From: Bacteroidota bacterium
GTDB taxonomy: Bacteria; Bacteroidota; Ignavibacteria; Kapaibacteriales; UBA961
Assembly: GCA_041191145.1 (NCBI GenBank)
Contig: JBEEPK010000001.1
Location: forward strand, 836-64,835
Direction of reading: 5' to 3'
DNA: 64,000 bases
Below, piece after piece: positions 16,308 through 58,713 of this stretch. The notes under the pieces are model-generated. The model was not told the origin of the DNA, made no database searches, and was given only the letters and a program-made list of their open reading frames with translations. The translations under genes and the position numbers were made by a program. Positions within the stretch are counted from its first letter, which is position 1, and each line of letters opens with the position of its first letter.

Positions 16308-16898
16308 TTAAACACAATGAACAATGATTTCAGTTTCAATGCACAGTCCTTTGTCTTTAGCATAGAAACCATGTAATGACTTATATATTTCTTGCTTTTC
16401 GGTATTCTGCGCACGGAGTTCATCAAACAATTCCTGCGCTTTACTTGGCCTTGGTCCCCATTGCCATTTTTCATTGCCAAATATGTCACAAGCAATCAGT
16501 TTTGGGATGCTCATTGAGCCATTTGTAAGAAATTGTTCCAATAATTCCGGATACTCATCTCTTGACACAATTCGCAATTCGATCCGATGTTCAGATGCTT
16601 GAGCTAGAGCGGCAATGATAGGAAGAGACTGCGCCGAATCACCACACCAACCTTCAGTAATGACAATCCAAGTTTGATTTGATTTCATTGTTTGCAATGC
16701 TTTCAAAGCATGCTCAGAGGGTTGATATACTTTTTCAACTCTAGTGCTTCTTGCCCAGTTCAATTCATAATACGCAAACATTTCTTTCTCTTTTTCTGTC
16801 ATGTCTTCTGTCGGAGCATGTGCTTTCAATGAAAATGCTTCCTTGTATGATGCATAGTCAATAGAATGTTTTACATATTCAAAAGCTGGACTAGTCAT
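16308..16898 (-). CDS. Thioredoxin-fold family protein
   Basis: This 196-aa protein has WIVITEGWCGDSAQSLP, a thioredoxin-like fold with a single Cys motif. No closer assignment is possible from sequence alone. Confidence 0.55.
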   Translation of the reverse strand: MTSPAFEYVKHSIDYASYKEAFSLKAHAPTEDMTEKEKEMFAYYELNWARSTRVEKVYQPSEHALKALQTMKSNQTWIVITEGWCGDSAQSLPIIAALAQASEHRIELRIVSRDEYPELLEQFLTNGSMSIPKLIACDIFGNEKWQWGPRPSKAQELFDELRAQNTEKQEIYKSLHGFYAKDKGLCIETEIIVHCV

Positions 16899-42375: not shown

Positions 42376-45300
42376 GGCTTCGCCTTCTGTATTCTCTTCA
42401 ATCTTGCTGATGCAGTTTTACCATAATCATCATCGGGTCTTAATGTCACGAGTGTTTGAAACACCTCCTTTGCAGCATCGTAATTTTTGAGTGTTTCATA
42501 ACAATCACCGAGACCCAAAAGTGATAAAGAGAACCAATCTTCAATGGAACTAAATTGCTCTTTTACTCCTAAAAATGCAGTGATGGCATTTGCATATTCC
42601 TTTTGCTTCATCCACAATTCACCGATTCGATATTGCGCTTCTGCTGCTATTGTTGGATTCTCCATTCTTTTGGCAATATGCCTGAAATGAACTATTGCAC
42701 TATCGAACATGGTACGTGATCGATAATACATTGCAATTCTATATCTGGATTGATCTCCAAATTCGGACTTATCATATGTTTCTGCCGTCAAAGAATACAA
42801 TCGTAAAGCTTGTAGTGAATCTCCTAGTGTCGATGCAATTTGCGCTCGCTCAAATCCTGCTTGAGCTGATGAAGCATTTTCGGGAAATTCAGTCATCACC
42901 ATCATAAATGCTGTATCGGCTTCTCGATATCTTTTATCATTTACTTTCATGAGTCCGATTTCAAGCAATGCGAGCGGAGCAAATTCTGTTTTTCCATATT
43001 TCTTGAACACATCTTTCCAAGATTGTTCGGCCTTGCCAGATTCACCCAAACTTGAAAAACTCTTACCTAAATAGAAAAGTGCTTCAGCATTCCTTTCTAT
43101 GTCATTATTGGACTTCAAAAAGGCTTCATATTCTGAGATTGCACCGGCATAATTCTTACCATTGTAAAAACTTAGTCCCCTATTCATCAATAAATCTTTG
43201 GCGATTTCAGATTGTGGATTTTTTGAAATGAAATCATCCACAATCACATTGGCTTCATCCACCCTTCCCAAAAATTCCAAACTATATTGAATGCTCTTTA
43301 CTGCTTCACCAGCCAATGGTGAAGATGGATATTGATTTTTTACAACTGTATAGGATGCAATTGCATCATCATAGCGCTCAAGGTTATAATATGCATCTGC
43401 AATGGTATAATGAGTTCTTGCGGCAAGTTGCGTAGATGGATATGCAACCAACAATGCTTTCAATTCTTGAATTGCATCATCATATTTTCTTTGTTGGAAT
43501 AATGTCCAACCTACTGAATATAAAGCCGATGCAGATAATGGAGATTGTGGATAAGAACGCGCAAATGTTCTGAATGCTTTTACTGCACCGTCGAAATCAT
43601 CAATTCTATACAATGCCTGACCATATTGATATGCCGAATATTGTCCTTCCTCAGAACGAGGTCCGGCATTCATCGCAGACTTATATGCTGAGGCAGCATC
43701 TTTGAATTGTCTTAATGCATAATATCCATCACCCTTTCGCGCCAAGGCATCAGTCGCAAATCGCGTTTGAGGGAATTCTTTGACCAATTTTGAAAATGAT
43801 TGTGAACTTTTTGCAAACTCTCTTCTACGGAATTGCGCCCAAGCAATCCCATACATACTCTCTTCTTTCCGATTGCTATTAGGATAATCCGAAATCAATT
43901 GAGTGTAAAATTCCTCGGCATTTGTCAAGAGGTCAGTTTTATAATACGATTCTGCAAGCCAAAATAATGCTTGGTCTCTTCTACCATCAACTTTATGCTC
44001 ACCAAGGAAAGTAGAGATTTCAATAATTGCATCTCTGTATTGTTCATTTTGATGTAATGAAATTCCTTGCTTCAATCTTGCTTCCGCAAGAATACTCTCT
44101 CTATTTTCTAGTTCTCTTTTGGACATTGAAAGCACCATTCTCTCGGCTGATGCATATTCTCTGGCTGATTTTCCAAATTGCTCTTGATCATGATATACAC
44201 TTCCAAGCAATAAATGGAGTTTTACAGACAATGACTTTTCTTGCGTTTCACGCAATGCTCTTTCAAATGTCTTTCGAGCCGTTTCCATTTCATTGTCTTC
44301 ATAAACCAATTGGCCATATTCCAGCAATGCATGTCCCAATAATTGATACCCGGTCTCCATAGTCAAAGCGGCAAACTCTTTCTTCGCTCTATCTCTTTCA
44401 CCTTTTGCTTTTGCAATCAATCCATGATATAATTTTGCTCCTGCCTTGAGTATTGCATGTTCATCTTTTGAAGAATCAATAACATATTGATACAATACTT
44501 CAGCTTCATCATATTTCCCAATATGAAAAGCGGCATATCCTGCAGACATTTTAGCATGCAGCATGATTGGCGATAGGGGATATGCATTCATGAATGAAAG
44601 AAATGCATCATATGCTTGTCTGGTTTGTTTTGCCAAGACCAATGCCTGCGCTCGCATGAATGACAAATCTTCGATTGCATGATCAGAAAAAGATTGCACT
44701 TCAGGCTTGATGATCGTTGTGTCCTGCGATTGCAATTTATCCACCAATGCTTGGGCTTGATCCATATACGCAATTGCAGCATTCGGTTCTCTCATTCCAA
44801 GCTTGATATTGGAAGCACGAATGGAAGAACTTAATGCAGTATTTCTTTGCGGATATGTACGCAATAATTCTCCATATAATGCAATGGCTTCTTGCTCAGC
44901 ACCGGATCGCTCACGCAATTGTGCTCGCATATACAATGCATCATCTGCCAAACCATGCATGGGATACAAAGATTGTATTTCTTTGAGTGTTGCAAATGCA
45001 TCATCAGGATTTCCACCTCTTGCTTGTGAAGCACCTTTCCAATACAATGACATCGCGCAATAATGAGCATGCAATGAATCGGTTTTGGCCTTCTCTCGTG
45101 ATATCTCCACGACTTTACCAAAATACTCTATCGCTTTTGGCATGTCCATTTGATAATAAGCTATGGAACCCCTTTCGATCAATGCAATGGGAAGGAATGG
45201 TGAATTCGGTCTTTGTTGAATGAATCTTTCCAGTGCTTTGTCAGCATATTGAAAATCACCGGATTGTCTCATCATAAGTGACTTTAAAATGGAAGCCTCA

Positions 45301-45551
45301 TCTGCATGTGCCCCATGTTCAGCGATAACTAGCGATTGACGGAATTGCTTTCCCGCTTCAGCCAGCATGCCGTCATCTATAAGTATTGACATACCTCGAA
45401 GATCCTTTATGCCATAGAGGACTCCCGGTTCTAACAATTGGCCATGCATGATATGAACTGATAACACGCATAAAGCCATGGATAACCAATGCTTCATAAT
45501 ATTTAGGAGGATGGAAAGATGCTGCACTTCAAAAATACGAATATCCTGCAA
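42372..45551 (-). CDS. Large (1059-aa) tetratricopeptide-repeat protein with signal peptide
   Basis: More than 15 TPR-like repeats (W/LG-Y-A-F-A-P patterning), for example YYKTDLLTNAEEFYTQLISDYPNS. Its stop overlaps the start of the downstream beta-barrel gene by 4 nt. Confidence 0.85.
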   Translation of the reverse strand: MQDIRIFEVQHLSILLNIMKHWLSMALCVLSVHIMHGQLLEPGVLYGIKDLRGMSILIDDGMLAEAGKQFRQSLVIAEHGAHADEASILKSLMMRQSGDFQYADKALERFIQQRPNSPFLPIALIERGSIAYYQMDMPKAIEYFGKVVEISREKAKTDSLHAHYCAMSLYWKGASQARGGNPDDAFATLKEIQSLYPMHGLADDALYMRAQLRERSGAEQEAIALYGELLRTYPQRNTALSSSIRASNIKLGMREPNAAIAYMDQAQALVDKLQSQDTTIIKPEVQSFSDHAIEDLSFMRAQALVLAKQTRQAYDAFLSFMNAYPLSPIMLHAKMSAGYAAFHIGKYDEAEVLYQYVIDSSKDEHAILKAGAKLYHGLIAKAKGERDRAKKEFAALTMETGYQLLGHALLEYGQLVYEDNEMETARKTFERALRETQEKSLSVKLHLLLGSVYHDQEQFGKSAREYASAERMVLSMSKRELENRESILAEARLKQGISLHQNEQYRDAIIEISTFLGEHKVDGRRDQALFWLAESYYKTDLLTNAEEFYTQLISDYPNSNRKEESMYGIAWAQFRRREFAKSSQSFSKLVKEFPQTRFATDALARKGDGYYALRQFKDAASAYKSAMNAGPRSEEGQYSAYQYGQALYRIDDFDGAVKAFRTFARSYPQSPLSASALYSVGWTLFQQRKYDDAIQELKALLVAYPSTQLAARTHYTIADAYYNLERYDDAIASYTVVKNQYPSSPLAGEAVKSIQYSLEFLGRVDEANVIVDDFISKNPQSEIAKDLLMNRGLSFYNGKNYAGAISEYEAFLKSNNDIERNAEALFYLGKSFSSLGESGKAEQSWKDVFKKYGKTEFAPLALLEIGLMKVNDKRYREADTAFMMVMTEFPENASSAQAGFERAQIASTLGDSLQALRLYSLTAETYDKSEFGDQSRYRIAMYYRSRTMFDSAIVHFRHIAKRMENPTIAAEAQYRIGELWMKQKEYANAITAFLGVKEQFSSIEDWFSLSLLGLGDCYETLKNYDAAKEVFQTLVTLRPDDDYGKTASARLKRIQKAKP

Positions 45552-45620
45552 TTAGAATATGTATGAAATGTATTTTTAGTAGTTATCTATTGAAATGATT
45601 GTGTCTATTGACCTAATTGA

Positions 45621-46367
45621 CTAATCTAAACCCAAAAAAGCAATATTTCTACCAATATTCCCTTCTCTTCGAAAAGAATGGAATCGGTCATCAGTTATTG
45701 TACAATTAGTAGATATCTCAATATGTTGCGCTAATACCCCACACTCTCTCAAAGTTGAAGCGATATATGATCGTAAATCAAAATAATTGGTCATATCAAC
45801 TTGATCTACAAATCCTGGAAACAAATCCATGAACTCGGGTCCCACTTCATACCTTTCTCTCCCAGCACATGGGGTTAACCAAATCAATACATCTGATGAA
45901 TCTGTACCAAACTTTTCCTTCATGATTTCTATTCCCTTCACACTAATATCTAGTTTTACTCCTCGCCAGCCGGCATGCAAAGCCATTATGGCCATATTTT
46001 TTGGATCATATATCATGATGCCACAACAGTCGGCTATTGCAATTCCTAATACTACATCGGGATTATTGGTATATAATCCATCTCCATCAGGAAGTATGCT
46101 CAGTACTGCTTCATGTATTTGATCTCCATGAACTTGATTCAAAGAGACAATCTTCTTTCCTATTCCACTTCCGATGGAATGTTCCATTGATTCTACATGA
46201 ACTTGGAATTGCTCATCGGTAAGCGATGCTCTTCGGAATGAAAATCCTGAAGGTGGATATTTATTGATTTCACCTTTCATCGACATCCCACAGAGAATTG
46301 GATAGTCCTTAAATATATTCGGTTGCAAATACTCCAATCTATTCTTGCTCCTTGTTTTGCAATGCAT
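45621..46367 (-). CDS. pgeF: Peptidoglycan editing factor PgeF (YfiH/laccase-domain family purine nucleoside phosphorylase)
   Basis: It has the YfiH motifs QVHGDQI, ADCCGIMIYD and HAGWRG. Its 5' end overlaps queG by 29 nt if it starts at 46367. Confidence 0.85.
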   Translation of the reverse strand: MHCKTRSKNRLEYLQPNIFKDYPILCGMSMKGEINKYPPSGFSFRRASLTDEQFQVHVESMEHSIGSGIGKKIVSLNQVHGDQIHEAVLSILPDGDGLYTNNPDVVLGIAIADCCGIMIYDPKNMAIMALHAGWRGVKLDISVKGIEIMKEKFGTDSSDVLIWLTPCAGRERYEVGPEFMDLFPGFVDQVDMTNYFDLRSYIASTLRECGVLAQHIEISTNCTITDDRFHSFRREGNIGRNIAFLGLD

Positions 46368-47313
46368 TTACATTTCTTTGCAAACCGGCTAGTTTTGTTC
46401 TTTTCACTGGACTTTTCCTGAATCTATCAGAAAATTCTTCTTGTTTCATTTCCAGTATTGATTGAAAAGTAAAGCCGGTTTCATTTTTCCTTGGTTGGAA
46501 TTCTTGGATTGTGGTTTCTGAGGAGAATCTATTCCAAGGACATATATCCTGGCAAATATCACATCCATATACCCATTGTTCCATATTGATTGCGATTTCT
46601 TTTGGTATCTCAATGTGTGGTTTTGCTTCTATCGTCCAATAAGAAATACATTTGTTTGCATCTACTTGATAAGGCTCGATGATTGCATTTGTGGGACATG
46701 CATCCAAACAAGCAGTGCAGGTTCCACAATAATCTTCCATCGGTGAATCATAATCCAATGGAATGGTGGAAATGATAACTCCCAAGAAAAACCATGACCC
46801 AATTTCCCGTGAAATGATATTGGAGTTCTTACCTTGCCAACCTATCCCAGCTTTGCGTGCCCATTGTTTTTCAGGAATTGGACCAGTATCGACATACACT
46901 TTTGATTGTGAATCAGGATCTATGAATTGTAATGCAGTTACTATTTCCTGCATCTTCATTGGAAGTATCTCATGATAATCGGTGCCCCATGCATAGCGTG
47001 AGATTTTTCCTTCTTCCCTGAAATCACGATGTGAATGAGGTGTATAATAAGACAATCCAACAACAATCACGGATTCAGCCCCCGGAAGTATTTCTCTTAT
47101 ATCTTCCCTTTTCTCAAGATTCTTTTCCAAATATTGCATTGTAGCATGATAACCCGAGGCTAGCCATTCTTGATACCGATCGAACTCTTCTGGCAATGCT
47201 TCCGTTTTTGCAATGCCAACCAATTCAAATCCTGCTTTTTTTGCAGCTTGCTTAATGAGCTCTGAATGATAGGATGACTGATTTTCCATCTTGATCAAAA
47301 ATTTCGAAGCCAA
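46339..47313 (-). CDS. queG: Epoxyqueuosine reductase
   Basis: It has two 4Fe-4S motifs, CGTCTACLDACPTNAI and CDICQDICPWN, plus the N-terminal QueG domain. Confidence 0.9.
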   Translation of the reverse strand: MASKFLIKMENQSSYHSELIKQAAKKAGFELVGIAKTEALPEEFDRYQEWLASGYHATMQYLEKNLEKREDIREILPGAESVIVVGLSYYTPHSHRDFREEGKISRYAWGTDYHEILPMKMQEIVTALQFIDPDSQSKVYVDTGPIPEKQWARKAGIGWQGKNSNIISREIGSWFFLGVIISTIPLDYDSPMEDYCGTCTACLDACPTNAIIEPYQVDANKCISYWTIEAKPHIEIPKEIAINMEQWVYGCDICQDICPWNRFSSETTIQEFQPRKNETGFTFQSILEMKQEEFSDRFRKSPVKRTKLAGLQRNVNALQNKEQE

Positions 47314-47705
47314 AGTGGAGTTAATTTTTCGGGTTTTTCAAGCCAGATGCTTCCTTCCATTTCGAATACATGATAAGTCTTGAGTCGCGCATTACTACCC
47401 AATGCCTTACCGGAATCCAAAGAATAAATCCAACCATGAAGCGGACATGTAACAGTACCTTCTTCAATCAGTCCATCACAAATCACAGCGGCATATTGAT
47501 GAGGACAGATATTCGAAACAGCATAGTATTCACTGCCATCACGAATGATTGCTATTTGAACATCCTCATCAAAATAGATATTCTTGCCTTTTTTCTGAAA
47601 GACTTCTTTTGAAGAACAAATGCGAAGATATTCTCTGCCTTCATGTGTCATACATTCATAGGAAGCTATTGCTTTATCAAATGCAGATGATTCCAAATCC
47701 GACAT
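47295..47705 (-). CDS. Rieske [2Fe-2S] domain protein (NirD-like)
   Basis: It has CPHQ(17 residues)CPLHGW. The product is 136 aa. Confidence 0.85.
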   Translation of the reverse strand: MSDLESSAFDKAIASYECMTHEGREYLRICSSKEVFQKKGKNIYFDEDVQIAIIRDGSEYYAVSNICPHQYAAVICDGLIEEGTVTCPLHGWIYSLDSGKALGSNARLKTYHVFEMEGSIWLEKPEKLTPLWLRNF

Positions 47706-48553
47706 CAGATATTCACCATTTCATTGTATGTGAACCCCTTCTCGGTTTTCTTGACTGTGCAAGCAATTGAGAAAGCATCATGTTCAAAACAAAGAATCCA
47801 ATTCTGCTCCGCGGCTTTTGTCAGTAATTGTTCCTTTTCTTTCATGCTGGTCAATGGAAAATTATCATAACCCATCACATATGGAACAGGGATATGTGCT
47901 CTTGTTGGAATAAGGTCAGCAGGAAATACAATATGATTATCATCATCAAAGAGATGAATCATCTGCAAACCTTGAGTGTGACCATATACTCTTTCGACAT
48001 GAATTCCTGTAAAAAGTTCGCCATCTCCTTCAATGAGATTCAGCATACCATTTGCGATCAGTGGATCCCAATTCTCAGGCATGAATGAAGCTCTATCTTT
48101 TTCCGTGGGTGCTTTGGCCCATTGCAATTGTTCCTCTTGAACATGATATGTTGCATTGGGAAAGACAGGTACGATTTCACCTGTCTCCATTCTTTTCGTT
48201 GCTCCACCCACATGATCGAAATGAAGATGTGTCAGAATGACATCCGTAATATCTTCGGATGTAATACCATAAGACTGTAAAGAATGCCCAACAGATGCTC
48301 TGGAATAATCCACTCGATATATGGACTCCAATTTTTCCGACATTTTATGTCCACATCCTGTATCAATGAGAATATTCTTCCCATTTCCTCGTATGAGCAA
48401 ACTTCTGGATGTCATGTCTATCCGATTGAGTTCATCTCCCGGATGATATGCTTTTGTCCATAAGGTCTTGGGAACCACGCCGAACATTGCTCCACCATCT
48501 AAAGCAAAATCACCGGTATCAAATATGTCGATTGTATATGGGCCTATATTCAT
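47705..48553 (-). CDS. MBL-fold metallo-hydrolase
   Basis: It has THLHFDHVGG. I placed the start at Met-27 of the ORF (48553) to avoid overlap with the upstream thioredoxin-like gene. Confidence 0.8.
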   Translation of the reverse strand: MNIGPYTIDIFDTGDFALDGGAMFGVVPKTLWTKAYHPGDELNRIDMTSRSLLIRGNGKNILIDTGCGHKMSEKLESIYRVDYSRASVGHSLQSYGITSEDITDVILTHLHFDHVGGATKRMETGEIVPVFPNATYHVQEEQLQWAKAPTEKDRASFMPENWDPLIANGMLNLIEGDGELFTGIHVERVYGHTQGLQMIHLFDDDNHIVFPADLIPTRAHIPVPYVMGYDNFPLTSMKEKEQLLTKAAEQNWILCFEHDAFSIACTVKKTEKGFTYNEMVNI

Positions 48554-48563
48554 GTTTTGTCCG

Positions 48564-49166
48564 TCACTTTTTCCATTTGATAGAACAACCGATTGCTTTT
48601 GTGGTTTCGGGTGCGGGAGTTTTTTGTGCAATCAAGGATTCAATTGCATTTGACAAATATGTTTCCTTCACTGAGTTTGCATCACTGTGATTATCATCGA
48701 TTGCACCGATATATGCAATCTTGAATGTATTGTCAGAATGTTTTTTGAGAAGATAGACATGCGGGGTGCGCGTTGCTCCATATTGCTTTGCAATAGACTG
48801 TGTTTCATCAATCACATAGCGGAATGGAAAGCCCTTTTCTTTGGATCGCTCAATCATTTTGTCGAAAGAATCTTCTGGAACCGTTACAGGATCATTGGGA
48901 TTGATTGCCAAAACTGGGAAACCTTTACCGGCGTATTTTTTATGCAAATCAATGATGCGATCTTCATATGCCTTTGAGAATGGACAATGATTGCATGTAA
49001 AAATGACGACAAGTCCATTATCAGCGGAATAACTTGCCAATGATACCATTGAACCATCAATATTCTTAAGGGAAAAATCCTTTGCATCATCACCGATTTT
49101 CAAACCTTCAGCAGAAAATGCATTAACTGCACCAAAAAAAAGCAGCGCTAGAATAAATGATTTCAT
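48564..49166 (-). CDS. Secreted thioredoxin-fold redoxin (TlpA/AhpC-TSA-like) with CxxC-type motif CNHC
   Basis: A signal peptide MKSFILALLFFGAVNAFSA is followed by VVIFTCNHCPFSKAYEDRI. Confidence 0.75.
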   Translation of the reverse strand: MKSFILALLFFGAVNAFSAEGLKIGDDAKDFSLKNIDGSMVSLASYSADNGLVVIFTCNHCPFSKAYEDRIIDLHKKYAGKGFPVLAINPNDPVTVPEDSFDKMIERSKEKGFPFRYVIDETQSIAKQYGATRTPHVYLLKKHSDNTFKIAYIGAIDDNHSDANSVKETYLSNAIESLIAQKTPAPETTKAIGCSIKWKK

Positions 49167-49170
49167 GTGT

Positions 49171-49644
49171 TTACTCCATCATGGATTGTATAGTGGTAAA
49201 TAATTCTTCTTTTTCTAATTGTTTTTCAAGAAACACTCTTTTCTTGATCCGATTTCGCAGAATGATTGTAGCAGGTAGCGAACCTGTCCATTCCGGTTCA
49301 ATTTTATCTATCCATTCATTTGGATTATGCTCGTCGAGCAAAAGAATCTCTGATTTCAAATCTTTCTTTTTCACAAAAGGAAGAAGTACTCTATCAAGTT
49401 CCGCGGGCGAGTCTAAGCTTACAAGAATGACACGAACATTTTTCTTTGAAAAACCTGAAGTAGCTTCTTCAAAATAAGGTAATTCTTCGATGCAAGGCTT
49501 GCACCATGTAGCCCAAAAATTGATCACATACACAGTATCAGCATCATTATGTAGAAGTGAAGTCAATGTTTCTAATTTCACAGTTTTTACTTGAGAAAAG
49601 GCCGTTAGTGAAGAGAGCATTAGCATCATGAAAAGACTTCTCAT
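49171..49644 (-). CDS. TlpA-family thiol:disulfide oxidoreductase (periplasmic thioredoxin)
   Basis: A signal peptide is followed by VINFWATWCKPCIEELP (WCxxC active site). Confidence 0.8.
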   Translation of the reverse strand: MRSLFMMLMLSSLTAFSQVKTVKLETLTSLLHNDADTVYVINFWATWCKPCIEELPYFEEATSGFSKKNVRVILVSLDSPAELDRVLLPFVKKKDLKSEILLLDEHNPNEWIDKIEPEWTGSLPATIILRNRIKKRVFLEKQLEKEELFTTIQSMME

Positions 49645-52600
49645 CTCATAATTCCCTGGATTTTCTGCAATCGATCAAAATACTGGCGAATCATGATTTC
49701 ATAATCTTTTGTATATCCTTTTCCTAGAGATCTAAGTACATCCTGCATGGCTCTTTGTCGACTCTCGGGAGTGGAAAGATCAAGTGGTGGTGGACTTTTT
49801 CCAACTATGTCTTGTCCGCTTCTTGCCTCTCTTTTCATTTCATAATCTCTTTCATTGATGGATCGCGTTGCATCAAGCAGTCGAGAAAGTATTTTATCTT
49901 GTCTTCTTTTTGTTTCAGGTGTGATCATTCCATTCTGCATTGCACTGACAACTTCCTGCATTTCATCGGCAATTTGCTGCAAGTCTCCCAGGGCCTGCTT
50001 TTTGCCGGTTGGATCTTGTTGCTGTTTAGCCAATTCTTGCATTGCCTGCTGCGCTTTGCCTTGCTGAGCGGCGAGTCTGGCCAATTGTTGCTGTTGTTGT
50101 GGAGACAAACTTCCATCAGACCCGGGCTGTGGCATACCTTGATTGATTTGTTGTTGCATGCCTGCCATATTCTGCAATTGTTGCATGAATCCACCACTTC
50201 CGGGTTTAGGCTCGCCATTTCCACCCGGATTATCACAAGATCCTTCTCCTTCACCTTGAAGTTTGTTCAAGGCATCTTGCATCTTTATGGATGCCTTATT
50301 GAGTGAATTCATTGCTTGTGCTTGAGATTGAGATGCCATTTGAGGATTTCTCTGCGACAATTGCTCAGATGCTTTTTGCATGCCTTGCATTGCATTGGAC
50401 ATTTCTTTTACCATTTCCGGCGTGACAGATTGTGACTTTTGTGCCAATTGCATGAGTTCTGACGCCATTTTTGACATCTGTTCTTGTAGTTTGGCTTGCT
50501 CTTGCGCGGATTGAGGCATTTGTGTGGAATTGAAATCCAATGTTTGATTGCGAGATTTTTGTGCTTCTTGTTGCTTGGAAAGAGACAATGTTTCTTGAAC
50601 TGATTTCTGCAATTGCTTGATTGCTTCTTTATTCATGTTCTTTTTCATCTCTTGCTTCATTTGCTTCATTTGCTTTGCAAACTTTTTCATTGATTGCGAA
50701 GCCTTTTTCTGTTTTTGAGCAGAAGAATTCATCTGACCTTGTTCCATGTCACTTTGAGCTTCTTGCATGTCATTGGATGTTTCTTGTTCTGACAACTCCT
50801 GCTTTGCTTTTTCAAGCTCTTCCATTGGCATGTTTTGCTTGAGTTCTTTCATCAAATCTTCTAGTTCTTTGAGTTCAGAAGCCATGTCTTTCATGTCTTT
50901 TTGCAAGGACTCCTGATTCTTACTCAAATCATTTCTTTCTTTTGTATCCTTAGGATTTGTGTTCTCGGTTCTTTGCGTAAGTTCATCTTGCTTTTGGGCC
51001 AGTTCTTCCGCACGACGAATCAATGCATCTGTTTTTTGCTCTGCTTGCATTCTTTTGAGGAGATTCATGGTTCTTTCAATTCCCTTTTTGAATTCTTCCT
51101 CATTAAATTTCATATTTTTCATGGCTTGGCGCATTTGCTCGGGATCCACTTGCTGCATGGCCTTTTGCATTGCATCCATTGCTTTGCGAAGTTCAGGTGA
51201 ATTGATCTCTTTCATCAATTGCTGCAGTTTTTGATATTCTTGTATGGTCTCAGGAGACAATGCATTCTTCTCTTGAAGATCATTGGTCATTTCTTGCAAT
51301 TGATCTCCTATTTCAGATAATTGCTTTTGGAGATCTGCTTGCTTCTTGAGAATATTCTCGATATTCTTCACATCTTTCCATTCCATGGATTGATCTTGCT
51401 TAAGCAATTCTCTTTGCAATTCCTCTAATTCCTTTCCAATCTTTTCTGCTTCTTTGGCAGTCTTTTCGAGTGTTTCCAATGCTTTATCTTGCACTGAATC
51501 CGCCTGAGACAAGACCTCATCAAGTGATGGAAGTCTTACCGAAATGATTCCGGTGCGAGCTTTCCCTGGACCTGTTACGGTATTATTATCAGCAATCTCG
51601 ATATAAAATTCATATTTGTCGCTTGGCGCAATTCCAATAAGATTCAAATCCCAAGTATAGCCAATATCTGCACTGAGTCCGGATCCCGAGGGAATCGGCA
51701 TTGACAATGAAGCATATTTCTCCATTGGTGGAGCATATTTGGAATCAATTAATCGATAATACAATTTGAGCGAAGAAAACCCATAATCATCGCTTATATG
51801 AACTGCAATTGGAAGTCTTGCCGATTCGGATAATACACCATCCCCTTGGGGTTCAATGAGTGAAATCGTTGGACTATTATCAGAAATTGCGGTTACTGAA
51901 TAATGAATGGGGTCAGCATTCGAACGACCATCCTTATCAATGATGCTGATGCAATATTCACCATCACGAGTGAGAGTAAAAGAACCGCTTGCCTTCATTG
52001 CATTTACATTCATTGAAATCTTGACGGTGTCATATGACTTTACATCAGAAACCTTTTCATCTGCCGATATCTTGGGATTCAACAAGAGGATGAATGCTTT
52101 TGATAATTCTTTATTTGCATCCACTTCAAGTTTCACAGAAGTTCCTTGCAATGCAAGTAGATCAGCTGATTGCTCATCAATTGTTCTACCCGATTGCTTG
52201 CTATATCCCGGAGGTGATACGGTTCCGGACAATGAACGAATCTCGGGTCTATCAATGACTTGAATATTTCCCTTTGGTGATAATACCTGCTCTGCGAGCC
52301 ATTCAGCATGCGCATAGAATGAAAGTGATGCTTTTGCAGATGGAATCTCATATCGGTATATATGCGCAGTGTCTGTTATGATTGCAACAGTGTCATACGT
52401 ATCCTGCATGTCTTCTTTGATATGCAAAATGATCTTTGGAGGGAGAGTCCCTTTAACACTGATGAGAATTTCTTCCTTGCTACCACGAAGTACCGTTTTG
52501 TGTATGGGAGAAATATCCAAACTATACGGTGCAGGCGGTATAAAGGACTGTTGATATTGAATCAATCTATTCAGAGATTCTCTGAGAGGACTGAATCCTA

Positions 52601-53135
52601 TAAACATGATGAGCGATATACCGAGGGCTGACATGAAGAAAATCAAAGCACGCTTTCTTTCTTGTTCATCGATAACTTCATAAAAATCCTTTTCCCTACT
52701 TTTTTTCTCAACTTCATCGAATGCAGCATTAATGAAAGGTAATGCTGAGAGTGGATATTGCTCTTTTTTTGACATCATTTGCAATGCATTATGCAATGTA
52801 TCACGTATATCTTCAAAGATGGAACCAACACGATTTGCAATTGCGAAGTGTGTTTCTTCTTTTGAAGATCTCATCAATTGTCTGATTGGAAAGATGCTCA
52901 ATATGCCAAGTGATCCAATTGATATGCATAACCAAGCAAAGAACAAGAATGTTCTGAAGGCTATATTTCCATTTGCAAAAACTTCTAACCCTGAAAAAAT
53001 GAGCGCTGTCATGATTGATATCAACAAAGCATGAAAAAGAGCAGTATTCAATTTGATGAATTGCTCTTTTTTATGAACCGAACGTAGTCTATCAATGACT
53101 TGTTCAGAGGAATTGCTCTGTGTGATTTCCTGCAT
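49641..53135 (-). CDS. Giant (1164-aa) uncharacterised membrane protein: N-terminal double TM, a further TM, Ig-like beta domains, then about 550 aa of Gln/Lys/Glu/Met-rich coiled coil
   Basis: TM pairs sit at about residues 30-85 and 165-185. Beta-rich modules include SGSFTLTRDGEYCISIIDKDGRSNADPIHYSVTAISDNSPTISL. An extended heptad-like low-complexity region runs about residues 560-1100 (...QKQLSEIGDQLQEMTNDLQEK..., ...QQQQQLARLAAQQGKAQQAMQELAKQQQ...). The ORF is intact and in an operon context. Confidence 0.7.
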   Translation of the reverse strand: MQEITQSNSSEQVIDRLRSVHKKEQFIKLNTALFHALLISIMTALIFSGLEVFANGNIAFRTFLFFAWLCISIGSLGILSIFPIRQLMRSSKEETHFAIANRVGSIFEDIRDTLHNALQMMSKKEQYPLSALPFINAAFDEVEKKSREKDFYEVIDEQERKRALIFFMSALGISLIMFIGFSPLRESLNRLIQYQQSFIPPAPYSLDISPIHKTVLRGSKEEILISVKGTLPPKIILHIKEDMQDTYDTVAIITDTAHIYRYEIPSAKASLSFYAHAEWLAEQVLSPKGNIQVIDRPEIRSLSGTVSPPGYSKQSGRTIDEQSADLLALQGTSVKLEVDANKELSKAFILLLNPKISADEKVSDVKSYDTVKISMNVNAMKASGSFTLTRDGEYCISIIDKDGRSNADPIHYSVTAISDNSPTISLIEPQGDGVLSESARLPIAVHISDDYGFSSLKLYYRLIDSKYAPPMEKYASLSMPIPSGSGLSADIGYTWDLNLIGIAPSDKYEFYIEIADNNTVTGPGKARTGIISVRLPSLDEVLSQADSVQDKALETLEKTAKEAEKIGKELEELQRELLKQDQSMEWKDVKNIENILKKQADLQKQLSEIGDQLQEMTNDLQEKNALSPETIQEYQKLQQLMKEINSPELRKAMDAMQKAMQQVDPEQMRQAMKNMKFNEEEFKKGIERTMNLLKRMQAEQKTDALIRRAEELAQKQDELTQRTENTNPKDTKERNDLSKNQESLQKDMKDMASELKELEDLMKELKQNMPMEELEKAKQELSEQETSNDMQEAQSDMEQGQMNSSAQKQKKASQSMKKFAKQMKQMKQEMKKNMNKEAIKQLQKSVQETLSLSKQQEAQKSRNQTLDFNSTQMPQSAQEQAKLQEQMSKMASELMQLAQKSQSVTPEMVKEMSNAMQGMQKASEQLSQRNPQMASQSQAQAMNSLNKASIKMQDALNKLQGEGEGSCDNPGGNGEPKPGSGGFMQQLQNMAGMQQQINQGMPQPGSDGSLSPQQQQQLARLAAQQGKAQQAMQELAKQQQDPTGKKQALGDLQQIADEMQEVVSAMQNGMITPETKRRQDKILSRLLDATRSINERDYEMKREARSGQDIVGKSPPPLDLSTPESRQRAMQDVLRSLGKGYTKDYEIMIRQYFDRLQKIQGIMR

Positions 53136-53136
53136 A

Positions 53137-53808
53137 TTATCTGCTCAATGCATAGACAATGATATTTGTTCCGATCTTTAAAGATGCTTCTCTTTTTTCG
53201 GGTGGGTCATGATGAACATCAGGATCTGCCCAGCCATCGCTTGGATTTGTCTCATATGTATAATACACACATAATTTACCTTCATGAAATAGTCCCAATC
53301 CTTCAGGTGATTTTGCATCGTGTTCATGAATTTTGGGAAGTCCATTTGGAAATGTATAATGGGCAGAATACAAAGGATGATCGAATGGTAACTCGACGAA
53401 TTTCTGATTTGGAAATACTTTACTCATCTCTTTTCTAATAGATGCATCCATTCCATAATCATCGTCTATGTATAGGAATCCACCATTCTCCAAATATGCT
53501 CTTAGCCGTCTTGCTTCAGCATCTGTAAGATTCATGGTTCCATGTCCTGTAAGAAACAACAAAGGATACAAAAAGATATTATCAGTTGCTAAATCCACAA
53601 ATTCATAAGTTGGTTCTGTCTGTATGGTTGTATGCTCATTCACATATTTCAATAAATTCACTTCTGAAGATTGATCATTATACCAATCTCCTCCTCCTGA
53701 ATATTTCACCCTTGCAAGTTTAATTTTACTTGTTGTTTGTAATTGTGCCTCAAGCGTTAAGCACATAAGAAACATACATAGGAAATATGTAAGAATTGTT
53801 TTCATCAA
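53137..53808 (-). CDS. Secreted hypothetical protein (recollection: DUF4159 family)
   Basis: A signal peptide MMKTILTYFLCMFLMCLTLEA precedes a 223-aa product with FLYPLLFLTGHGTMNLTDAEARRLRAYLENGGFLYIDDDYG. There is a 1-nt gap to the giant gene and a 4-nt overlap with glmM. The family label is from memory. Confidence 0.55.
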   Translation of the reverse strand: MMKTILTYFLCMFLMCLTLEAQLQTTSKIKLARVKYSGGGDWYNDQSSEVNLLKYVNEHTTIQTEPTYEFVDLATDNIFLYPLLFLTGHGTMNLTDAEARRLRAYLENGGFLYIDDDYGMDASIRKEMSKVFPNQKFVELPFDHPLYSAHYTFPNGLPKIHEHDAKSPEGLGLFHEGKLCVYYTYETNPSDGWADPDVHHDPPEKREASLKIGTNIIVYALSR

Positions 53809-55163
53809 TCTTGAAACTGCATCAGGAGTGATTGTACATAGTGTTGAACTCTTTTCTCATCCAAACATTCAATGATATATCGTAAAATCGGCTCGGTATT
53901 TGACATTCGAACATGCATCCATCCATCTGAGAATTGCATCCATATGCCATCATCTTTACGAATCTCAATGATAGTACTTGCGAATTGTCGTTCTATTCTC
54001 TGAAATATTTCATCAGCCGAACCGGACCAAGGCATTTTTCCTTTGATCATATATGTTTTTGGAAGCATTTCAGCCAATGTGCTGAGAGATTTGCCTGTTT
54101 TCTTCATCAATGCAATGATGAGTGATATGCCAATAAGGGAATCGCGTCCAAAATGACATGCTGGAAGAATGACTCCACCGCTTCCTTCCCCACCTATGAT
54201 GCATTCATGTTCTTTCAGTGCTTGAACAACATTAATCTCACCTACCGGAGTTCTATGAACCTTCCAACCATTATTCTTAGCCAAAATTTCACTCATGCTT
54301 GAAGTAGACATATTGATGGCTATTGAATATGAATCTTGTTTCAAGTCAGCGCATTCAAGAATTGCCAAGATGCATAAGGCGATAGTTTTTTCCTCACCAA
54401 TTGCATTTCCTTGTTCATCGATCAATACCAATCGATCAGCATCGGGATCCACGGCAATTCCGAGCTGAGCTGAATGTTTGCATACGGCTGACATCAGATC
54501 TGTCAAATGCTCGGTCAATGGTTCAGGAGTATGAGGAAATTCGCCGGTATTGTCACAATACAGAGGAATACACTCGCAGTCTAGCGATTCAAGCAAAGCT
54601 GGTACGAATGTGCTTCCCGAAGCATTCACTGCATCGACAACTGCAAATATGGGAATCTTTACATGTGGTAAGTCAATTCCTAATAATTGAAGAGATGCAT
54701 GAATTTTTGCAATATGCTGTTCTGAAGGATTTTCAACTACAATACAATTTCCCGGATTGATATTTTCTTCAATAGCATTATCATCCAGATAATTCCAGAA
54801 ATCACGATTTTCTTCTGCATTGAGAAATACACCTCCTGCATTGAGGAATTTCATTCCATTCCACTCACTAGGATTATGAGACGCAGTGATGGAAATCCCT
54901 CCAATTGCATTGGAATGTTCGGTTTCAAGTTGTACTGAAGGCGTTGGAGCAATCCCCAATGAAATAACTTCTCTGCCATATGCATTGAGCGTAGCAATGA
55001 TCACTTCTTCCATCCAGACTCCTGAAGGACGGCCATCTCTTCCGATGACTATGGGTCCGGGTGGTAGATAAGCGGCAAAAGCCCTTGAATATGAAGCAAT
55101 CAACTCTTGAGTCAATTCATCATTTGTAACTCTAAGCCCTGATATCGAGCGTATACATGCCAT
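53805..55163 (-). CDS. glmM: Phosphoglucosamine mutase / phosphohexomutase family
   Basis: It has the active-site serine loop ISITASHNPSEWNGMKF, a metal-binding DPDADR and a sugar-binding GGEGSGG. Confidence 0.8.
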   Translation of the reverse strand: MACIRSISGLRVTNDELTQELIASYSRAFAAYLPPGPIVIGRDGRPSGVWMEEVIIATLNAYGREVISLGIAPTPSVQLETEHSNAIGGISITASHNPSEWNGMKFLNAGGVFLNAEENRDFWNYLDDNAIEENINPGNCIVVENPSEQHIAKIHASLQLLGIDLPHVKIPIFAVVDAVNASGSTFVPALLESLDCECIPLYCDNTGEFPHTPEPLTEHLTDLMSAVCKHSAQLGIAVDPDADRLVLIDEQGNAIGEEKTIALCILAILECADLKQDSYSIAINMSTSSMSEILAKNNGWKVHRTPVGEINVVQALKEHECIIGGEGSGGVILPACHFGRDSLIGISLIIALMKKTGKSLSTLAEMLPKTYMIKGKMPWSGSADEIFQRIERQFASTIIEIRKDDGIWMQFSDGWMHVRMSNTEPILRYIIECLDEKRVQHYVQSLLMQFQD

Positions 55164-55231
55164 GATAATCTAAAATAAAATGCTGCAGAATGGTCCTGCA
55201 AATATACCGTGTTCCACGATTATGGTGTCAT

Positions 55232-55261
55232 AAAAAAAGGCCATCCGAAATTCGAATGGCC
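55232..55261 (-). terminator. Rho-independent terminator downstream of the OmpA/PD40 gene
   Basis: A hairpin ggccatccgaa/ttcgaatggcc, read on the minus strand, is followed by TTTTTTT (the A-run at 55232-55238 on the plus strand). Confidence 0.65.
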
Positions 55262-55282
55262 TTATATCCTTTTCTGTAAAGA

Positions 55283-58039
55283 TTATTCTTCTTCTATCGG
55301 AGTCTGAATATAGATCTTAACAGTTCTATTATACAATCTGCCTTCTGGCAATTCATTGATAAAGAATGGTAAATCTTCACCAACACCTTTTGATTCCAAA
55401 ACTTGGAATTGACCTCTCGTTGCATTACGAATTGCAGTTTCTACTGTCTTTGCGCGATTGGTAGACAATTTCGCATTTGATTCAAACATACCAATTACGT
55501 CAGTATGTCCTTCTACGGAGATCTCAGACTTGGGCATTGTGCGAGTAAATACAAATTCCTTCATGATACGCTCATTAAATGGACCTGCATCATAACGATT
55601 GAATGGGAAGAGTACGAGCTTATAACTTTCGCGAGTTTTTGCACCTGCTTTCTCAACTTTTACGCCAGGCTTATTCTTCACTATCATCACTTTAATCATG
55701 ATCGGTTCTGAAGCACATTCAGTACCATTGATGCTCTTTACGATAAGTCTTGCTGAAAATGCACCTTCATCATTGATTGATTCTTCCAATTTGGCTCCGG
55801 CAGCATTTTTCCAGTCCCAAGTATATGTTTTTTCTGACTTTCCGACTTTAGTGAGAGTAATCCACTCACCATCACCGCGCTTGACTTCGATTCTGCGTGA
55901 TTCAACCAATCCTTCATCAATACCATTATCCAATTGGAAATCCATCGTCAAAGGTGTTGGGAAGATTGTAGGCTCACGGTCGATCAGAGGCTTACGAACT
56001 TGCCAAAGATCTTCTTCGGAACTACTTGCGAATGTAAGTTCAGTTCTACGATTTTCGACATTACTATACAATTTACTCTGAGGATCTTTATCGCTTGTTT
56101 TAGAAGCAACCAATGCATCAGGAAGATTGCGTTTTTCAAGCTTCATTCTGCTTTCTTCAATACCCCAAACATTCTTGAGATAATCATAGACGATTTGAGC
56201 TCTTCTTTGAGAGAGATCCAAATCTTTTTCTCCTGGTGAAGTTTCATCATTACAACCTGTTACGGTTACGGAAACACTTGGATACTTCTTCAGGCGATAG
56301 CCATAAATATTCAATATGTCATAATACTTTTCAGGAGTATTTGCATCCTTATCACCTTTCACTCTTTCATCTGAGAAACCTGCTGTTTGCGCTGATGATG
56401 AGAATAAGCGATAGCGTGATGGGATTGTTGAAGAAGTAGAATCAAAGAATACATAAGGTAACAATGGGAACAAATCGATAGTTGCAACTTCTTCCAATAC
56501 CAAGCCCTTCCATGATGCAAGATTTGGATTTTTCTTGCTAATACGCTTTATATAATCTGCATATTCCATCTCAGCAGAAATTTGTGGTTTTCTTCCGAGA
56601 GTAATTCGAACAGGTGGCTCTTCCTTTGATTGCTTTGCCTTTTCTTCATCATAAGTTGTTTCAGGCTTGATAATGGTCACAGTTTGAGATTTTGTACCAT
56701 ACTTGTCATTTTGAGCCACTATTTCAAATTCAATTTTCTCTGATACATTGTCACCTGTGCCATAATCGGCATTTTGAACGATATATTGAAGCTCAGGTTT
56801 GCCTTGCTTTAATGAATCACGCTTAGATGTTCCAATATGCTTGTTCTTGATTGTCACTAGGGCAGGAATTCCTTCACCTGTACATTCATCAATCACAATA
56901 ACTCTGAGAATAACTGCTCTTGAGAATGGCGGAACAAATGCCATGAATACATCTTGGCCACCTTGAGAACGCTCAAAAGATCTATCTGAAGAGAAATAAA
57001 TAACATCGCCAGAAGCAGGGAATGATATAAATTCTTCATCGTCCTTTGAATTGATTCCAGGATATGGAATTGGTTCGGGTTTGGACCAGATATTCTTTTC
57101 AGCATCTTTCAATGTTGTGAAATAGAAATCTTTTGCACCAAGATTTGGGATATGACCAGTTGAAGCAAAATACAGAGTCACTCCGTCTTTTGCGATGAAA
57201 GGTCCTAGTTCTTCTCCTGAAGTATTTACCGGAGCACCAAGATTTTTTGCCGGTTTCCAATTACCTGATTCTTCATCAAAATCTGCATACCAAATATCAT
57301 AATTGGTATTACCAGGGTCTGAGTCCGTATTATTTGGTCCCAAACGGTTTGAAGAAAAGTAAATACGATTTCCATCAGGAGAAAGAGATGGTTGTGAATC
57401 CCAGAAATTTGAATTTACTTCTTTCCCAAGATTGGACGGTCTGCCCCATTTAACACCGTCGATTTCTGTCAAATACAAATCACATGAACCAAATCCATCC
57501 GGACGATCGCATGCAGTAAAAATAAGTCTTTGACCATCGGATGAAATCGATGCAGCACCTTCATTATAGATGGTGTTAACTGTGTTCTTGCTATTTTTTG
57601 GCTCTGGCTCAATATTGAACAGTGAGTCAGCTTGGAATTCATCCAATCTACCTTCTTTTTTTGATGCCCAAAAGTCATCCGATGCCGGACCACGATATTC
57701 TACATCATCACTTGACTTACTTCCCTTTCTATTCGATACGAAAAACAATGTTTTCCCATCAGCGGTAACCGTGGGTGCATACTCATCAGCACCTGTATTG
57801 ATTGCAGGACCAAGATTGATGATTTTGATATTCTTGGTTTTCAATGCATTTGCAGCATTGTCATCATCATCTGCTTCAATTGTTGCAGAATAGAGATACA
57901 AAGGTTCATTGGGAGCGGATTCTCCGGCCTTTGTAATAGCATTGAGCAATTTACCTTCTAATCTACCAGCTATTGCTGACTGCGTAACAGTACTTGCAAT
58001 AAGCATGAAGCTGAAGAGAAAGAGTAGTCGTTTTTTCAT
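55283..58039 (-). CDS. Large OmpA family protein with TolB-like (PD40/WD40-like) beta-propeller repeats and two OmpA-like domains
   Basis: A signal peptide is followed by PD40-like repeats (YFSSNRLGPNN, LYFASTGH), an OmpA-like segment LLPYVFFDSTSSTIP...RRAQIVYDYL, and a C-terminal segment VEGHTDVIGMFESNAKLSTNRAKTV. Confidence 0.85.
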   Translation of the reverse strand: MKKRLLFLFSFMLIASTVTQSAIAGRLEGKLLNAITKAGESAPNEPLYLYSATIEADDDDNAANALKTKNIKIINLGPAINTGADEYAPTVTADGKTLFFVSNRKGSKSSDDVEYRGPASDDFWASKKEGRLDEFQADSLFNIEPEPKNSKNTVNTIYNEGAASISSDGQRLIFTACDRPDGFGSCDLYLTEIDGVKWGRPSNLGKEVNSNFWDSQPSLSPDGNRIYFSSNRLGPNNTDSDPGNTNYDIWYADFDEESGNWKPAKNLGAPVNTSGEELGPFIAKDGVTLYFASTGHIPNLGAKDFYFTTLKDAEKNIWSKPEPIPYPGINSKDDEEFISFPASGDVIYFSSDRSFERSQGGQDVFMAFVPPFSRAVILRVIVIDECTGEGIPALVTIKNKHIGTSKRDSLKQGKPELQYIVQNADYGTGDNVSEKIEFEIVAQNDKYGTKSQTVTIIKPETTYDEEKAKQSKEEPPVRITLGRKPQISAEMEYADYIKRISKKNPNLASWKGLVLEEVATIDLFPLLPYVFFDSTSSTIPSRYRLFSSSAQTAGFSDERVKGDKDANTPEKYYDILNIYGYRLKKYPSVSVTVTGCNDETSPGEKDLDLSQRRAQIVYDYLKNVWGIEESRMKLEKRNLPDALVASKTSDKDPQSKLYSNVENRRTELTFASSSEEDLWQVRKPLIDREPTIFPTPLTMDFQLDNGIDEGLVESRRIEVKRGDGEWITLTKVGKSEKTYTWDWKNAAGAKLEESINDEGAFSARLIVKSINGTECASEPIMIKVMIVKNKPGVKVEKAGAKTRESYKLVLFPFNRYDAGPFNERIMKEFVFTRTMPKSEISVEGHTDVIGMFESNAKLSTNRAKTVETAIRNATRGQFQVLESKGVGEDLPFFINELPEGRLYNRTVKIYIQTPIEEE

Positions 58040-58085
58040 GGCATAACCTTGAAGTGAAAAACGTAATGTATCTAATTGTTATTTT

Positions 58086-58613
58086 TTATTCTATCGGACC
58101 GATTGTACAAAGGACAAAACCTTTCTCAATCGCAGAACCTTCATTTACATGAATTTCTTTGATGATACCATTTATCGGAGATTTCAAAGCATTCTCCATT
58201 TTCATGGCTTCGAGTACAAAGATGACTTCACCCTTCTTTACAGTTTGGCCAATTGTAACATTGATTACCTTCAGTAATCCCGGCATGGGAGCATTCACCT
58301 TCACAATGGAAAGTAAGGAAGCAGCTCCTGACTTGATGATTGTGCCATACTCGTACTGCCTATTATCACTCACTTTTGAAGAATATGTATATCCATTCAG
58401 TGAAATGTCAATACCTTGATGCGTTTTAGTGGCTATCACAATATGTCTCTCACTTGATGATTGATTGATCATTTCATAACACGATGGATATTCAAGTAGT
58501 GAATGAACAATGAAGGCATCTTTACCAACAATGATTGACGAACCTTCCACAAAGATTGGATTATCTTTGTTTTCAGCGGAAAATTCTGCTTCGGCATGAT
58601 AAGAAATTGCCAT
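58086..58613 (-). CDS. Biotin carboxyl carrier protein-like (biotinyl domain, EAMKM)
   Basis: The C-terminal biotinyl domain reads VKKGEVIFVLEAMKMENALKSPINGIIKEIHVNEG. No carboxylase or decarboxylase partner is present in the window. Confidence 0.7.
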   Translation of the reverse strand: MAISYHAEAEFSAENKDNPIFVEGSSIIVGKDAFIVHSLLEYPSCYEMINQSSSERHIVIATKTHQGIDISLNGYTYSSKVSDNRQYEYGTIIKSGAASLLSIVKVNAPMPGLLKVINVTIGQTVKKGEVIFVLEAMKMENALKSPINGIIKEIHVNEGSAIEKGFVLCTIGPIE

Positions 58614-58713
58614 GACAGGATAAAGTAAGTGCGAACAGGAACTATTTCAACGCGGAAATTTAGACAAATTTTTCATTTTAGGCACCCATATTGCATGTAA
58701 AGTTGTCCACATC

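Follow-up and report, generated by a model that had tools for sequence, protein, structure and literature searches.

The window considered here is a stretch of 64,000 nucleotides (nt) from a Bacteroidota bacterium (contig JBEEPK010000001.1 of assembly GCA_041191145.1), and positions refer to this stretch unless a locus number precedes them. Between 45621 and 55163, its minus strand was found to carry nine tightly packed genes running from glmM (55163) to pgeF (45621), in the order glmM-like, DUF4159, a 1164-amino acid (aa) protein referred to below as the giant, two thioredoxin-like proteins (Trx1 and Trx2), a metallo-beta-lactamase (MBL)-fold hydrolase, a Rieske protein, queG and pgeF. A preliminary description of this DNA, made from the sequence alone, had counted ten genes and had proposed a redox-linked envelope scaffold module. 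The count is nine; the coordinates of its open reading frames (ORFs) and their overlapping or near-abutting junctions were confirmed. The DUF4159 protein and the giant, with the regions into which the giant divides, are located as follows.

53137..53808, minus strand: exported stand-alone DUF4159 protein of 223 aa, with a Sec-type signal peptide and an alpha/beta domain resembling class I glutamine amidotransferases (GATase1-like; PF13709, 220.6 bits)

49641..53135, minus strand: the giant, a 1164-aa inner-membrane protein of the DUF4175 family (PF13779)

52551..53135, minus strand: giant aa 1-195, predicted transmembrane (TM) hairpin (36-54, 63-81), cytoplasmic helical loop of ~80 aa and third TM helix (163-181), from a Kyte-Doolittle scan and K/R counts

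51516..52550, minus strand: giant aa 196-540, tandem immunoglobulin (Ig)-like beta-sandwiches (AlphaFold2 model, predicted local distance difference test (pLDDT) ~85-94; Foldseek)

49644..51515, minus strand: giant aa 541-1164, Q/K/E/M-rich helical region, modelled by AlphaFold2 as stacked four-helix bundles

To place the giant, its sequence was compared with protein family collections. With the whole protein as query, a single Pfam family was matched, DUF4175 (PF13779), at 49.2 bits against a cutoff of 27.3 bits. The Ig-like portion at aa 301-522 alone scored 41.7 bits (E 5.5e-11) and the helical half alone 22.7 bits; as the globular aa 301-522 passes by itself, the match is not due to low-complexity sequence. 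Against NCBIfam, zero matches were obtained at E<=0.01, so that the protein is not the alpha-proteobacterial TIGR02302 equivalog. Homologues of 1086-1201 aa were found at identities from 93% down to 17-21%, including in Ignavibacteria and in metagenome-assembled genomes (MAGs) of Gemmatimonadota. A profile built from 40 homologues recovered 24,938 representatives of 50%-identity clusters at E<=1e-3 and at least 10,170 at E<=1e-30; the 150 best-scoring representatives were mostly full-length matches of ~1100-1250 aa. Judged by these matches, the giant is no orphan but an unremarkable member of a family that is very large and of unknown function, and its architecture is not the undescribed one it had been taken for. 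The accompanying remark that it fits no characterised system held, as a literature search gave zero characterised function for DUF4159 or DUF4175. In the searchable literature, the sole mention of DUF4159 was in a paper on the Pfam database; DUF4175 appeared only as a match in the N-terminus of AdvA, and TIGR02302 only in regulon or gene lists. Hints at function there were limited to the AdvA match and to a TIGR02302 protein in the CenR envelope regulon.

The reading frame of the giant, described as intact, was indeed uninterrupted in close relatives, with 1159-1164 aa at 76-93% identity. At two loci the giant was split into two ORFs (L037:4640-8129, 848 + 400 aa; L135:2498-5887, two pieces), probably by frameshifts or MAG assembly errors.

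The Kyte-Doolittle scan identified three hydrophobic helices in the giant, at aa 36-54, 63-81 and 163-181, instead of the double-TM anchor proposed previously, and in 40/40 homologues no TM segment was found past aa 260. K and R residues numbered 5 at the N-terminus, 0 in the first loop and 14 in the second. Given the third helix and this distribution (the positive-inside rule), the N-terminus and the loop at aa 85-163 should be cytoplasmic and the remaining ~980 aa should lie outside, in the periplasm. Residues D112, L114 and N116 of the cytoplasmic loop were conserved in the homologue alignment.

AlphaFold2 modelled the giant with a mean pLDDT of 76, giving confident Ig-like sandwiches from aa ~200 to 535 and helices from aa 538 to the end. 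Foldseek matched the Ig region to Ig, FN3 and complement MG-domain arrays, bearing out the Ig-like beta modules of the preliminary description. All family-invariant residues (P309, D419, P422, D449-D450-G452 and D516-N517) fell in this region, and the motifs D..P.I, DDYGF and DN may be likened to the calcium-binding linkers of extracellular Ig/cadherin-like arrays. The Q/K/E/M-rich helical half was likewise real, with 16.5% Q and 7.7% M between aa 538 and 1100, the corresponding values for the N-terminal half being 3.4% and 2.2%. It carries a conserved C-terminal motif (RQ..I.SRLLDA.R ... GYTKDYE..I..YF). Internal repeats were compared by hhalign between segments, and the probabilities reached ~63-81% at best. 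A search of PDB sequences with the giant profile was set aside, having returned coiled-coil or designed-helix compositional matches only. Among close relatives (synonymous divergence, dS, ~0.4-0.5) the giant was under purifying selection throughout, with an omega of 0.025 in the helical half and 0.065-0.07 in the other two regions. Being under the strongest constraint of the three, the helical half is not a passive spacer.

The DUF4159 protein scored above the gathering threshold of PF13709, and its AlphaFold2 model (pLDDT 88) had the fold of 4i66 (Hoch_4089 from Haliangium ochraceum), the only solved DUF4159 structure and itself uncharacterised. The invariant motifs GGGDWY, TGHG, DDDYG, PKIHEHD and DGWAD were located on loops following beta-strands. 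Invariant residues include D41, W42, H89, D115-D117, H161, E162, H163, D164, D191, W193, D195 and H199. An alignment of 28 sequences contained zero invariant cysteines, C180 being nearly invariant only. The loop after the strand at 111-116 carries D115-D116-D117, and in the model this Asp triplet may be the counterpart of the glutamine amidotransferase nucleophile elbow. Amidotransferase activity is unlikely because there is no invariant Cys, an Asp triplet follows the central strand, and amidotransferases are cytoplasmic enzymes, unlike this exported protein; a catalytic class I enzyme was rejected on the lack of a conserved Cys nucleophile. Across Ignavibacteria/Kapabacteria genomes the protein remained 62-77% identical where the giant dropped to ~40-45%. 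The conservation pattern suggests that the invariant His, Asp, Glu, Trp and Tyr residues may cluster into a pocket for a ligand or metal, peculiar to the subfamily that accompanies the giant.

A DUF4159 gene standing alone, with 46% identity to that of the window, was also encountered on plasmid L172 of Corynebacterium crudilactis (NZ_CP015623.1, 129740-130357). It adjoins a dihydrofolate reductase gene, both lying inside an IS26/ISVsa3 resistance mosaic, and was presumably picked up as a piece of chromosome of a different phylum. Otherwise the plasmid collection yielded only weak Gemmatirosa matches, and no helpful annotated context.

To examine the conservation of the neighbourhood, one genome was taken per species with DUF4159, giving 80 Ignavibacteria/Kapabacteria loci. 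The giant directly followed DUF4159 in 66 of these, lay 0.7-6 kb downstream in five, and was absent in eight; in one, the contig end was too near. The pair was also present in loci L006 and L009, with giants 45% and 42% identical, and in two Gemmatimonadota-type loci (L008 and L090), where giants only ~21% identical were joined to DUF4159 by 4-nt overlaps behind rsmI; the flanking genes differed each time. The adjacency of the giant and DUF4159 is therefore conserved down to giants of ~21% identity.

The remaining genes of the string behaved differently. glmM was upstream of DUF4159 in 11/80 species genomes and Trx1/Trx2 were present in 10/80 (giants >=56% identical), in both cases all in the clade of the window; glmM, MBL, Rieske, queG and pgeF are clade-specific neighbours. 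The commonest upstream gene elsewhere was rsmG (40 loci). Clustering of the neighbours in 79 + 80 loci found no third conserved component; Ignavibacteria had rsmG, a GT2 glycosyltransferase and endonuclease III as recurrent neighbours, the Gemmatimonadota-type loci had rsmI, and a second lineage described below had HATPase_c_2, ybeY and mnmG. After the giant, two further ORFs were seen in each of L090:11351-13290 and L008:13381-16376, with overlapping starts in L090. Those of L090 (226 and 420 aa) had no Pfam match and the first of L008 had a weak TPR_6 match only; potentially, they could be lineage-specific additional components.

The nine-gene string of this Ignavibacteria-type genome is specific to one clade, and its only conserved module is the exported DUF4159 protein and the DUF4175-family giant. 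With a probability of roughly one half, the two would act together as an envelope pair. The giant would be anchored by its three membrane helices, with the N-terminus and the conserved loop of ~80 aa on the cytoplasmic side and ~980 aa projecting into the periplasm, first as Ig-like sandwiches and then as a chain of four-helix bundles. The DUF4159 protein would be secreted by Sec and would have a glutamine amidotransferase-like fold lacking the Cys nucleophile. Most likely, the two would form a membrane-tethered periplasmic complex for cell-envelope maintenance. The TlpA-like proteins would serve as reductants of the periplasm at large, added to the gene string in one lineage.

Several observations weigh against the envelope pair. 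The physical link between the giant and DUF4159 is putative, and the envelope role is deduced from where the proteins lie, from a single regulon listing of a distant relative and from analogy. The motifs TGHG, DDDYG, PKIHEHD and DGWAD are absent from 4i66, and a pocket function would be extrapolated from conservation alone. The helical half of the giant was modelled at moderate confidence (pLDDT 60-80, predicted template modelling (pTM) score 0.42). Finally, in 80 metagenome loci of the second lineage (probably Bacteroidota) no DUF4159 was found within 8 kb of the giant, and the giants in L001, L003 and L007 also had no adjacent DUF4159; the giant can thus be encoded, and can perhaps work, without a neighbouring partner.

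In the second lineage (L092-L171), the gene directly after the giant encodes a protein of ~140 aa in 49/73 loci (e.g. L137:8462-8884 and L094:11354-11776) and is followed by ybeY and mnmG. The larger cluster of these proteins (38 loci) matched the HATPase_c_2 histidine-kinase-like ATPase domain at 89 bits, and the smaller (11 loci) had no Pfam match. This neighbour, together with the near-invariant residues at the ends of the TM helices and in the cytoplasmic loop (E51, R61, D112, L114 and N116), would be consistent with a transmembrane signalling device, in which the periplasmic Ig domains, bundles and DUF4159 sense an envelope cue and the TM hairpin and loop relay it inward. However, the domain scans revealed no recognisable output domain in the giant (kinase, HAMP, GGDEF or anti-sigma), four-helix bundles are generic, with de novo designed bundles scoring highest in the structure comparison, and neither the Ignavibacteria nor the Gemmatimonadota-type loci have the HATPase_c_2 neighbour, which sits in a ybeY-mnmG housekeeping run. 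Signalling was considered quite unlikely.

The thioredoxins bear on the redox function put forward in the preliminary description. The two genes and the cysteine-containing loop of the giant are as follows.

49171..49644, minus strand: Trx1, exported TlpA/ResA-like thiol:disulfide oxidoreductase with a WCKPC motif (Pfam AhpC-TSA, Redoxin and Thioredoxin)

48564..49166, minus strand: Trx2, exported Redoxin/AhpC-TSA-family protein with a CNHC motif (Pfam; signal-like N-terminus)

50220..50243, minus strand: GSCDNPGG at giant aa 965-972, in a low-confidence Gly-rich loop (AlphaFold2 pLDDT <50)

Trx1 has a hydrophobic N-terminus, and its PDB matches included ResA, StoA and TlpA. It fell below the NCBIfam cutoffs for ResA and TlpA (47 vs 170 bits) and by its sequence is of the TlpA/ResA type at superfamily level only. 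The best PDB match of Trx2 was 2ywi, and 2cvb ('probable thiol-disulfide isomerase/thioredoxin') was also matched. The Cys column of the giant loop was conserved in 25/40 aligned homologues. GSCxNPGG was common to homologues only ~22% identical, some with extra Cys pairs, and was lost in most Ignavibacteria/Kapabacteria. Its Asn-Pro in a flexible loop may resemble NPTH-type autocleavage sites.

Trx1 and Trx2, both apparently exported, could be dedicated to keeping the giant reduced, through either the GSCDNPGG Cys (Cys967) or repair of the Met-rich half. The 4-nt overlap between the giant stop and the Trx1 start would agree with this, as would the co-occurrence of the giant, Trx1 and Trx2 in every genome of the window clade (giants down to 56% identity) and the 7-9% Met of the helical half in most relatives. 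The C..PG motif was found in 12/12 Trx-adjacent giants and in only 4/57 other Ignavibacteria/Kapabacteria giants. However, the adjacency to Trx is confined to the single clade (10/80) and counts as one evolutionary event; it was absent from L006, L008, L009, L090 and the 80 second-lineage loci. The Cys motif is kept without an adjacent Trx in L006, L009 and L019 and in 68/78 giants of the second locus set, and because three independent lineages thus retain the Cys without a neighbouring Trx, the correlation within Ignavibacteria reflects one clade. Moreover, most Ignavibacteria/Kapabacteria giants have zero periplasmic cysteines (median 0), and in the clade with Trx, glmM, MBL, Rieske, queG and pgeF became fixed in the string as well, which suggests general gene packing and not functional recruitment. 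A dedicated redox function is therefore unlikely. From the scaffold module originally proposed, the conserved giant-DUF4159 pair stood, whereas a conserved unit of giant, DUF4159 and TlpA with dedicated thioredoxin partners did not. Further periplasmic thiol-redox genes lie elsewhere in the window, away from the giant, namely a CcmF/ResB-like cytochrome c assembly protein at 11600-13879 (-) and a Thioredoxin_9 protein at 16308-16898 (-) by TerC.

The remaining features of the string, from upstream to downstream, are as follows.

55237..55263, minus strand: terminator-like hairpin of 12 bp followed by TTTTTTT, after a PD40/OmpA gene and upstream of glmM (consensus scan and direct reading)

55199..55206, minus strand: TATATTTG, which fits the Bacteroidetes-type -7 promoter motif TAnnTTTG, 36 nt 5' of the glmM ATG (motif scan)

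53805..55163, minus strand: glmM-like gene, the first of the string, for a phosphoglucosamine-mutase-like PGM/PMM enzyme (Pfam PGM_PMM domains I-IV)

47705..48553, minus strand: MBL-fold hydrolase, YtnP-like (Pfam Lactamase_B)

47295..47705, minus strand: small Rieske [2Fe-2S] protein (Pfam Rieske and Rieske_2)

46339..47313, minus strand: queG, tRNA epoxyqueuosine(34) reductase (NCBIfam TIGR00276, 342 bits vs a 200-bit cutoff)

45621..46367, minus strand: pgeF/YfiH-family gene (Cu-oxidase_4), the last of the string (Pfam PF02578)

Three of these proteins fell below the corresponding NCBIfam cutoffs: the glmM-like protein scored 409 bits against Arch_GlmM (cutoff 439 bits), the MBL protein 215.7 bits against lactonase_YtnP, and the pgeF-family protein 134.9 bits against TIGR00726, just short of 141 bits.

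Every junction in the string was either an overlap or a gap of <=10 nt. glmM and DUF4159 overlap at 53805-53808, by 4 nt with the TTG start of DUF4159 or by 1 nt should translation in fact begin at the ATG at 53805. A gap of 1 nt separates DUF4159 from the giant, and the giant and Trx1 share 49641-49644. Trx1 and Trx2 are 4 nt apart, MBL and Rieske have nucleotide 47705 in common, and Rieske/queG and queG/pgeF overlap by 19 and 29 nt, respectively. Since the homologues of the MBL protein are of 282 aa, its start is probably the ATG at 48553, 10 nt after Trx2, and not the listed TTG at 48631, which would overlap Trx2 by 68 nt.

The hairpin likely marks the upstream boundary of the unit, and TATATTTG may act as its promoter. 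Only three minus-strand matches to TAnnTTTG were present in 45000-58700, with zero within 45538-55198, where ~3.4 would be expected by chance. The next match (45537-45530) falls inside the annotated TTG start of a downstream 1059-aa TPR gene, which may have its true start further downstream and its own promoter. In a sigma-70 promoter and terminator scan the region was no richer than shuffled sequence, and Rfam and tRNA scans gave zero RNA elements in it. The genes from glmM to pgeF are probably one transcription unit: the packed junctions, the upstream hairpin and a TAnnTTTG without an internal copy fit a single unit but do not prove it.

The preliminary description had also likened the N-terminal anchor of the giant to BatA-like aerotolerance proteins. 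DUF4159 domains occur at the C-terminus of BatA_N-type double-TM (cmdC-type) proteins in alpha-proteobacterial MoxR-DUF58 operons. The pair could then be a component of a Bat/MoxR-type system (Bacteroides aerotolerance, cmdA-D-like) encoded elsewhere in the genome. The cmd operon is reported to cause envelope defects in Rhizobium, and a VWA-containing giant protein (~1450 aa, with WD40 and ASH domains) is encoded on the opposite strand 4-5 genes upstream of DUF4159 in ~35 other Ignavibacteria/Kapabacteria loci. However, neither BatA_N (PF07584) nor VWA was matched by the giant, even at E<=1 with its N-terminal 195 aa and its Ig sub-region taken separately, and neither MoxR (AAA_3) nor DUF58 was found among the scanned genes of the 64-kb window or in 11 Pfam-annotated loci. 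Furthermore, among the 90 clusters of recurrent neighbours, at most one matched any given Bat/MoxR-type family. Membership was rejected on these grounds, the BatA analogy did not hold, and a link to a system encoded elsewhere is very improbable. In the window itself, a 1571-aa protein with VWA and ASH/HYDIN-like Ig domains, similar to the ~1450-aa protein, is encoded at 20779-25494 (+).

A more far-reaching possibility, which we regard as doubtful, is that DUF4159 and DUF4175 constitute an unrecognised periplasmic machine, widespread in Ignavibacteriota, Kapabacteria and Gemmatimonadota. In such a machine, DUF4159 would bind a metal or glycan and possibly be catalytic, the giant would serve as an Ig/helical shaft, and TlpA-like proteins would exert redox control where the Cys of GSCxNPGG is kept.

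In several lineages of the Fibrobacterota-Chlorobiota-Bacteroidota (FCB) group, the two DUF families are stably paired, often as genes that overlap translationally. This sharpens an annotation problem but does not amount to a system of a new kind. It also warns against reading function from the genes around the pair, since the thioredoxins, glmM and pgeF adjoin it in a single clade only. The pair offers a concrete target for study in cultivable Ignavibacterium, Melioribacter or Gemmatimonas, and if it is an envelope-maintenance complex, it would close a gap in the knowledge of non-proteobacterial cell envelopes.

Among known systems, the closest families are DUF4175 and DUF4159, both uncharacterised, and the pair is a known but functionally uncharacterised two-gene envelope module. 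The fold of DUF4159 relates it to the class I glutamine amidotransferases and their non-catalytic relatives (ThuA-like proteins, the IFT52 N-terminal domain and OST48/WBP1), from which it differs in having no invariant Cys and in being exported. The Bat and cmdA-D (RL3499-RL3502) systems have in common with the pair an inner-membrane protein whose N-terminus forms a TM hairpin, and a general link to the envelope, but BatA_N, VWA, MoxR and DUF58 are lacking from the giant and its annotated neighbours. PorM/GldM and TolA are alike in shape only, with a membrane anchor and Ig-like and helical modules reaching into the periplasm; the searches revealed no relationship in sequence or in specific fold, PorM has its domains in the opposite order, and no type IX secretion system (T9SS) or Tol genes were linked. 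AdvA, an essential division protein of Acinetobacter baumannii, has a DUF4175 match in its N-terminal region with two TM helices (PMC7481262). It would share at most the N-terminal membrane part; the periplasmic Ig and helical body of the giant is not reported for AdvA.

The likeness to DUF4175 is a match above the gathering score, carried by the Ig-like region of the giant. TIGR02302 is taken here to correspond to DUF4175; in its plan, membrane helices at the N-terminus precede a long, Gln-rich extracytoplasmic part. The giant has the same plan. RSP_0730, a 'TIGR02302 family protein' of the alpha-proteobacterium Rhodobacter sphaeroides, is a direct, non-essential target in the CenR cell-envelope regulon (PMC9275681). 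Compared with the alpha-proteobacterial TIGR02302 proteins, the giant is longer, at ~1100-1200 aa, and is paired with a stand-alone DUF4159 protein in the Ignavibacteria/Kapabacteria and Gemmatimonadota-type loci.

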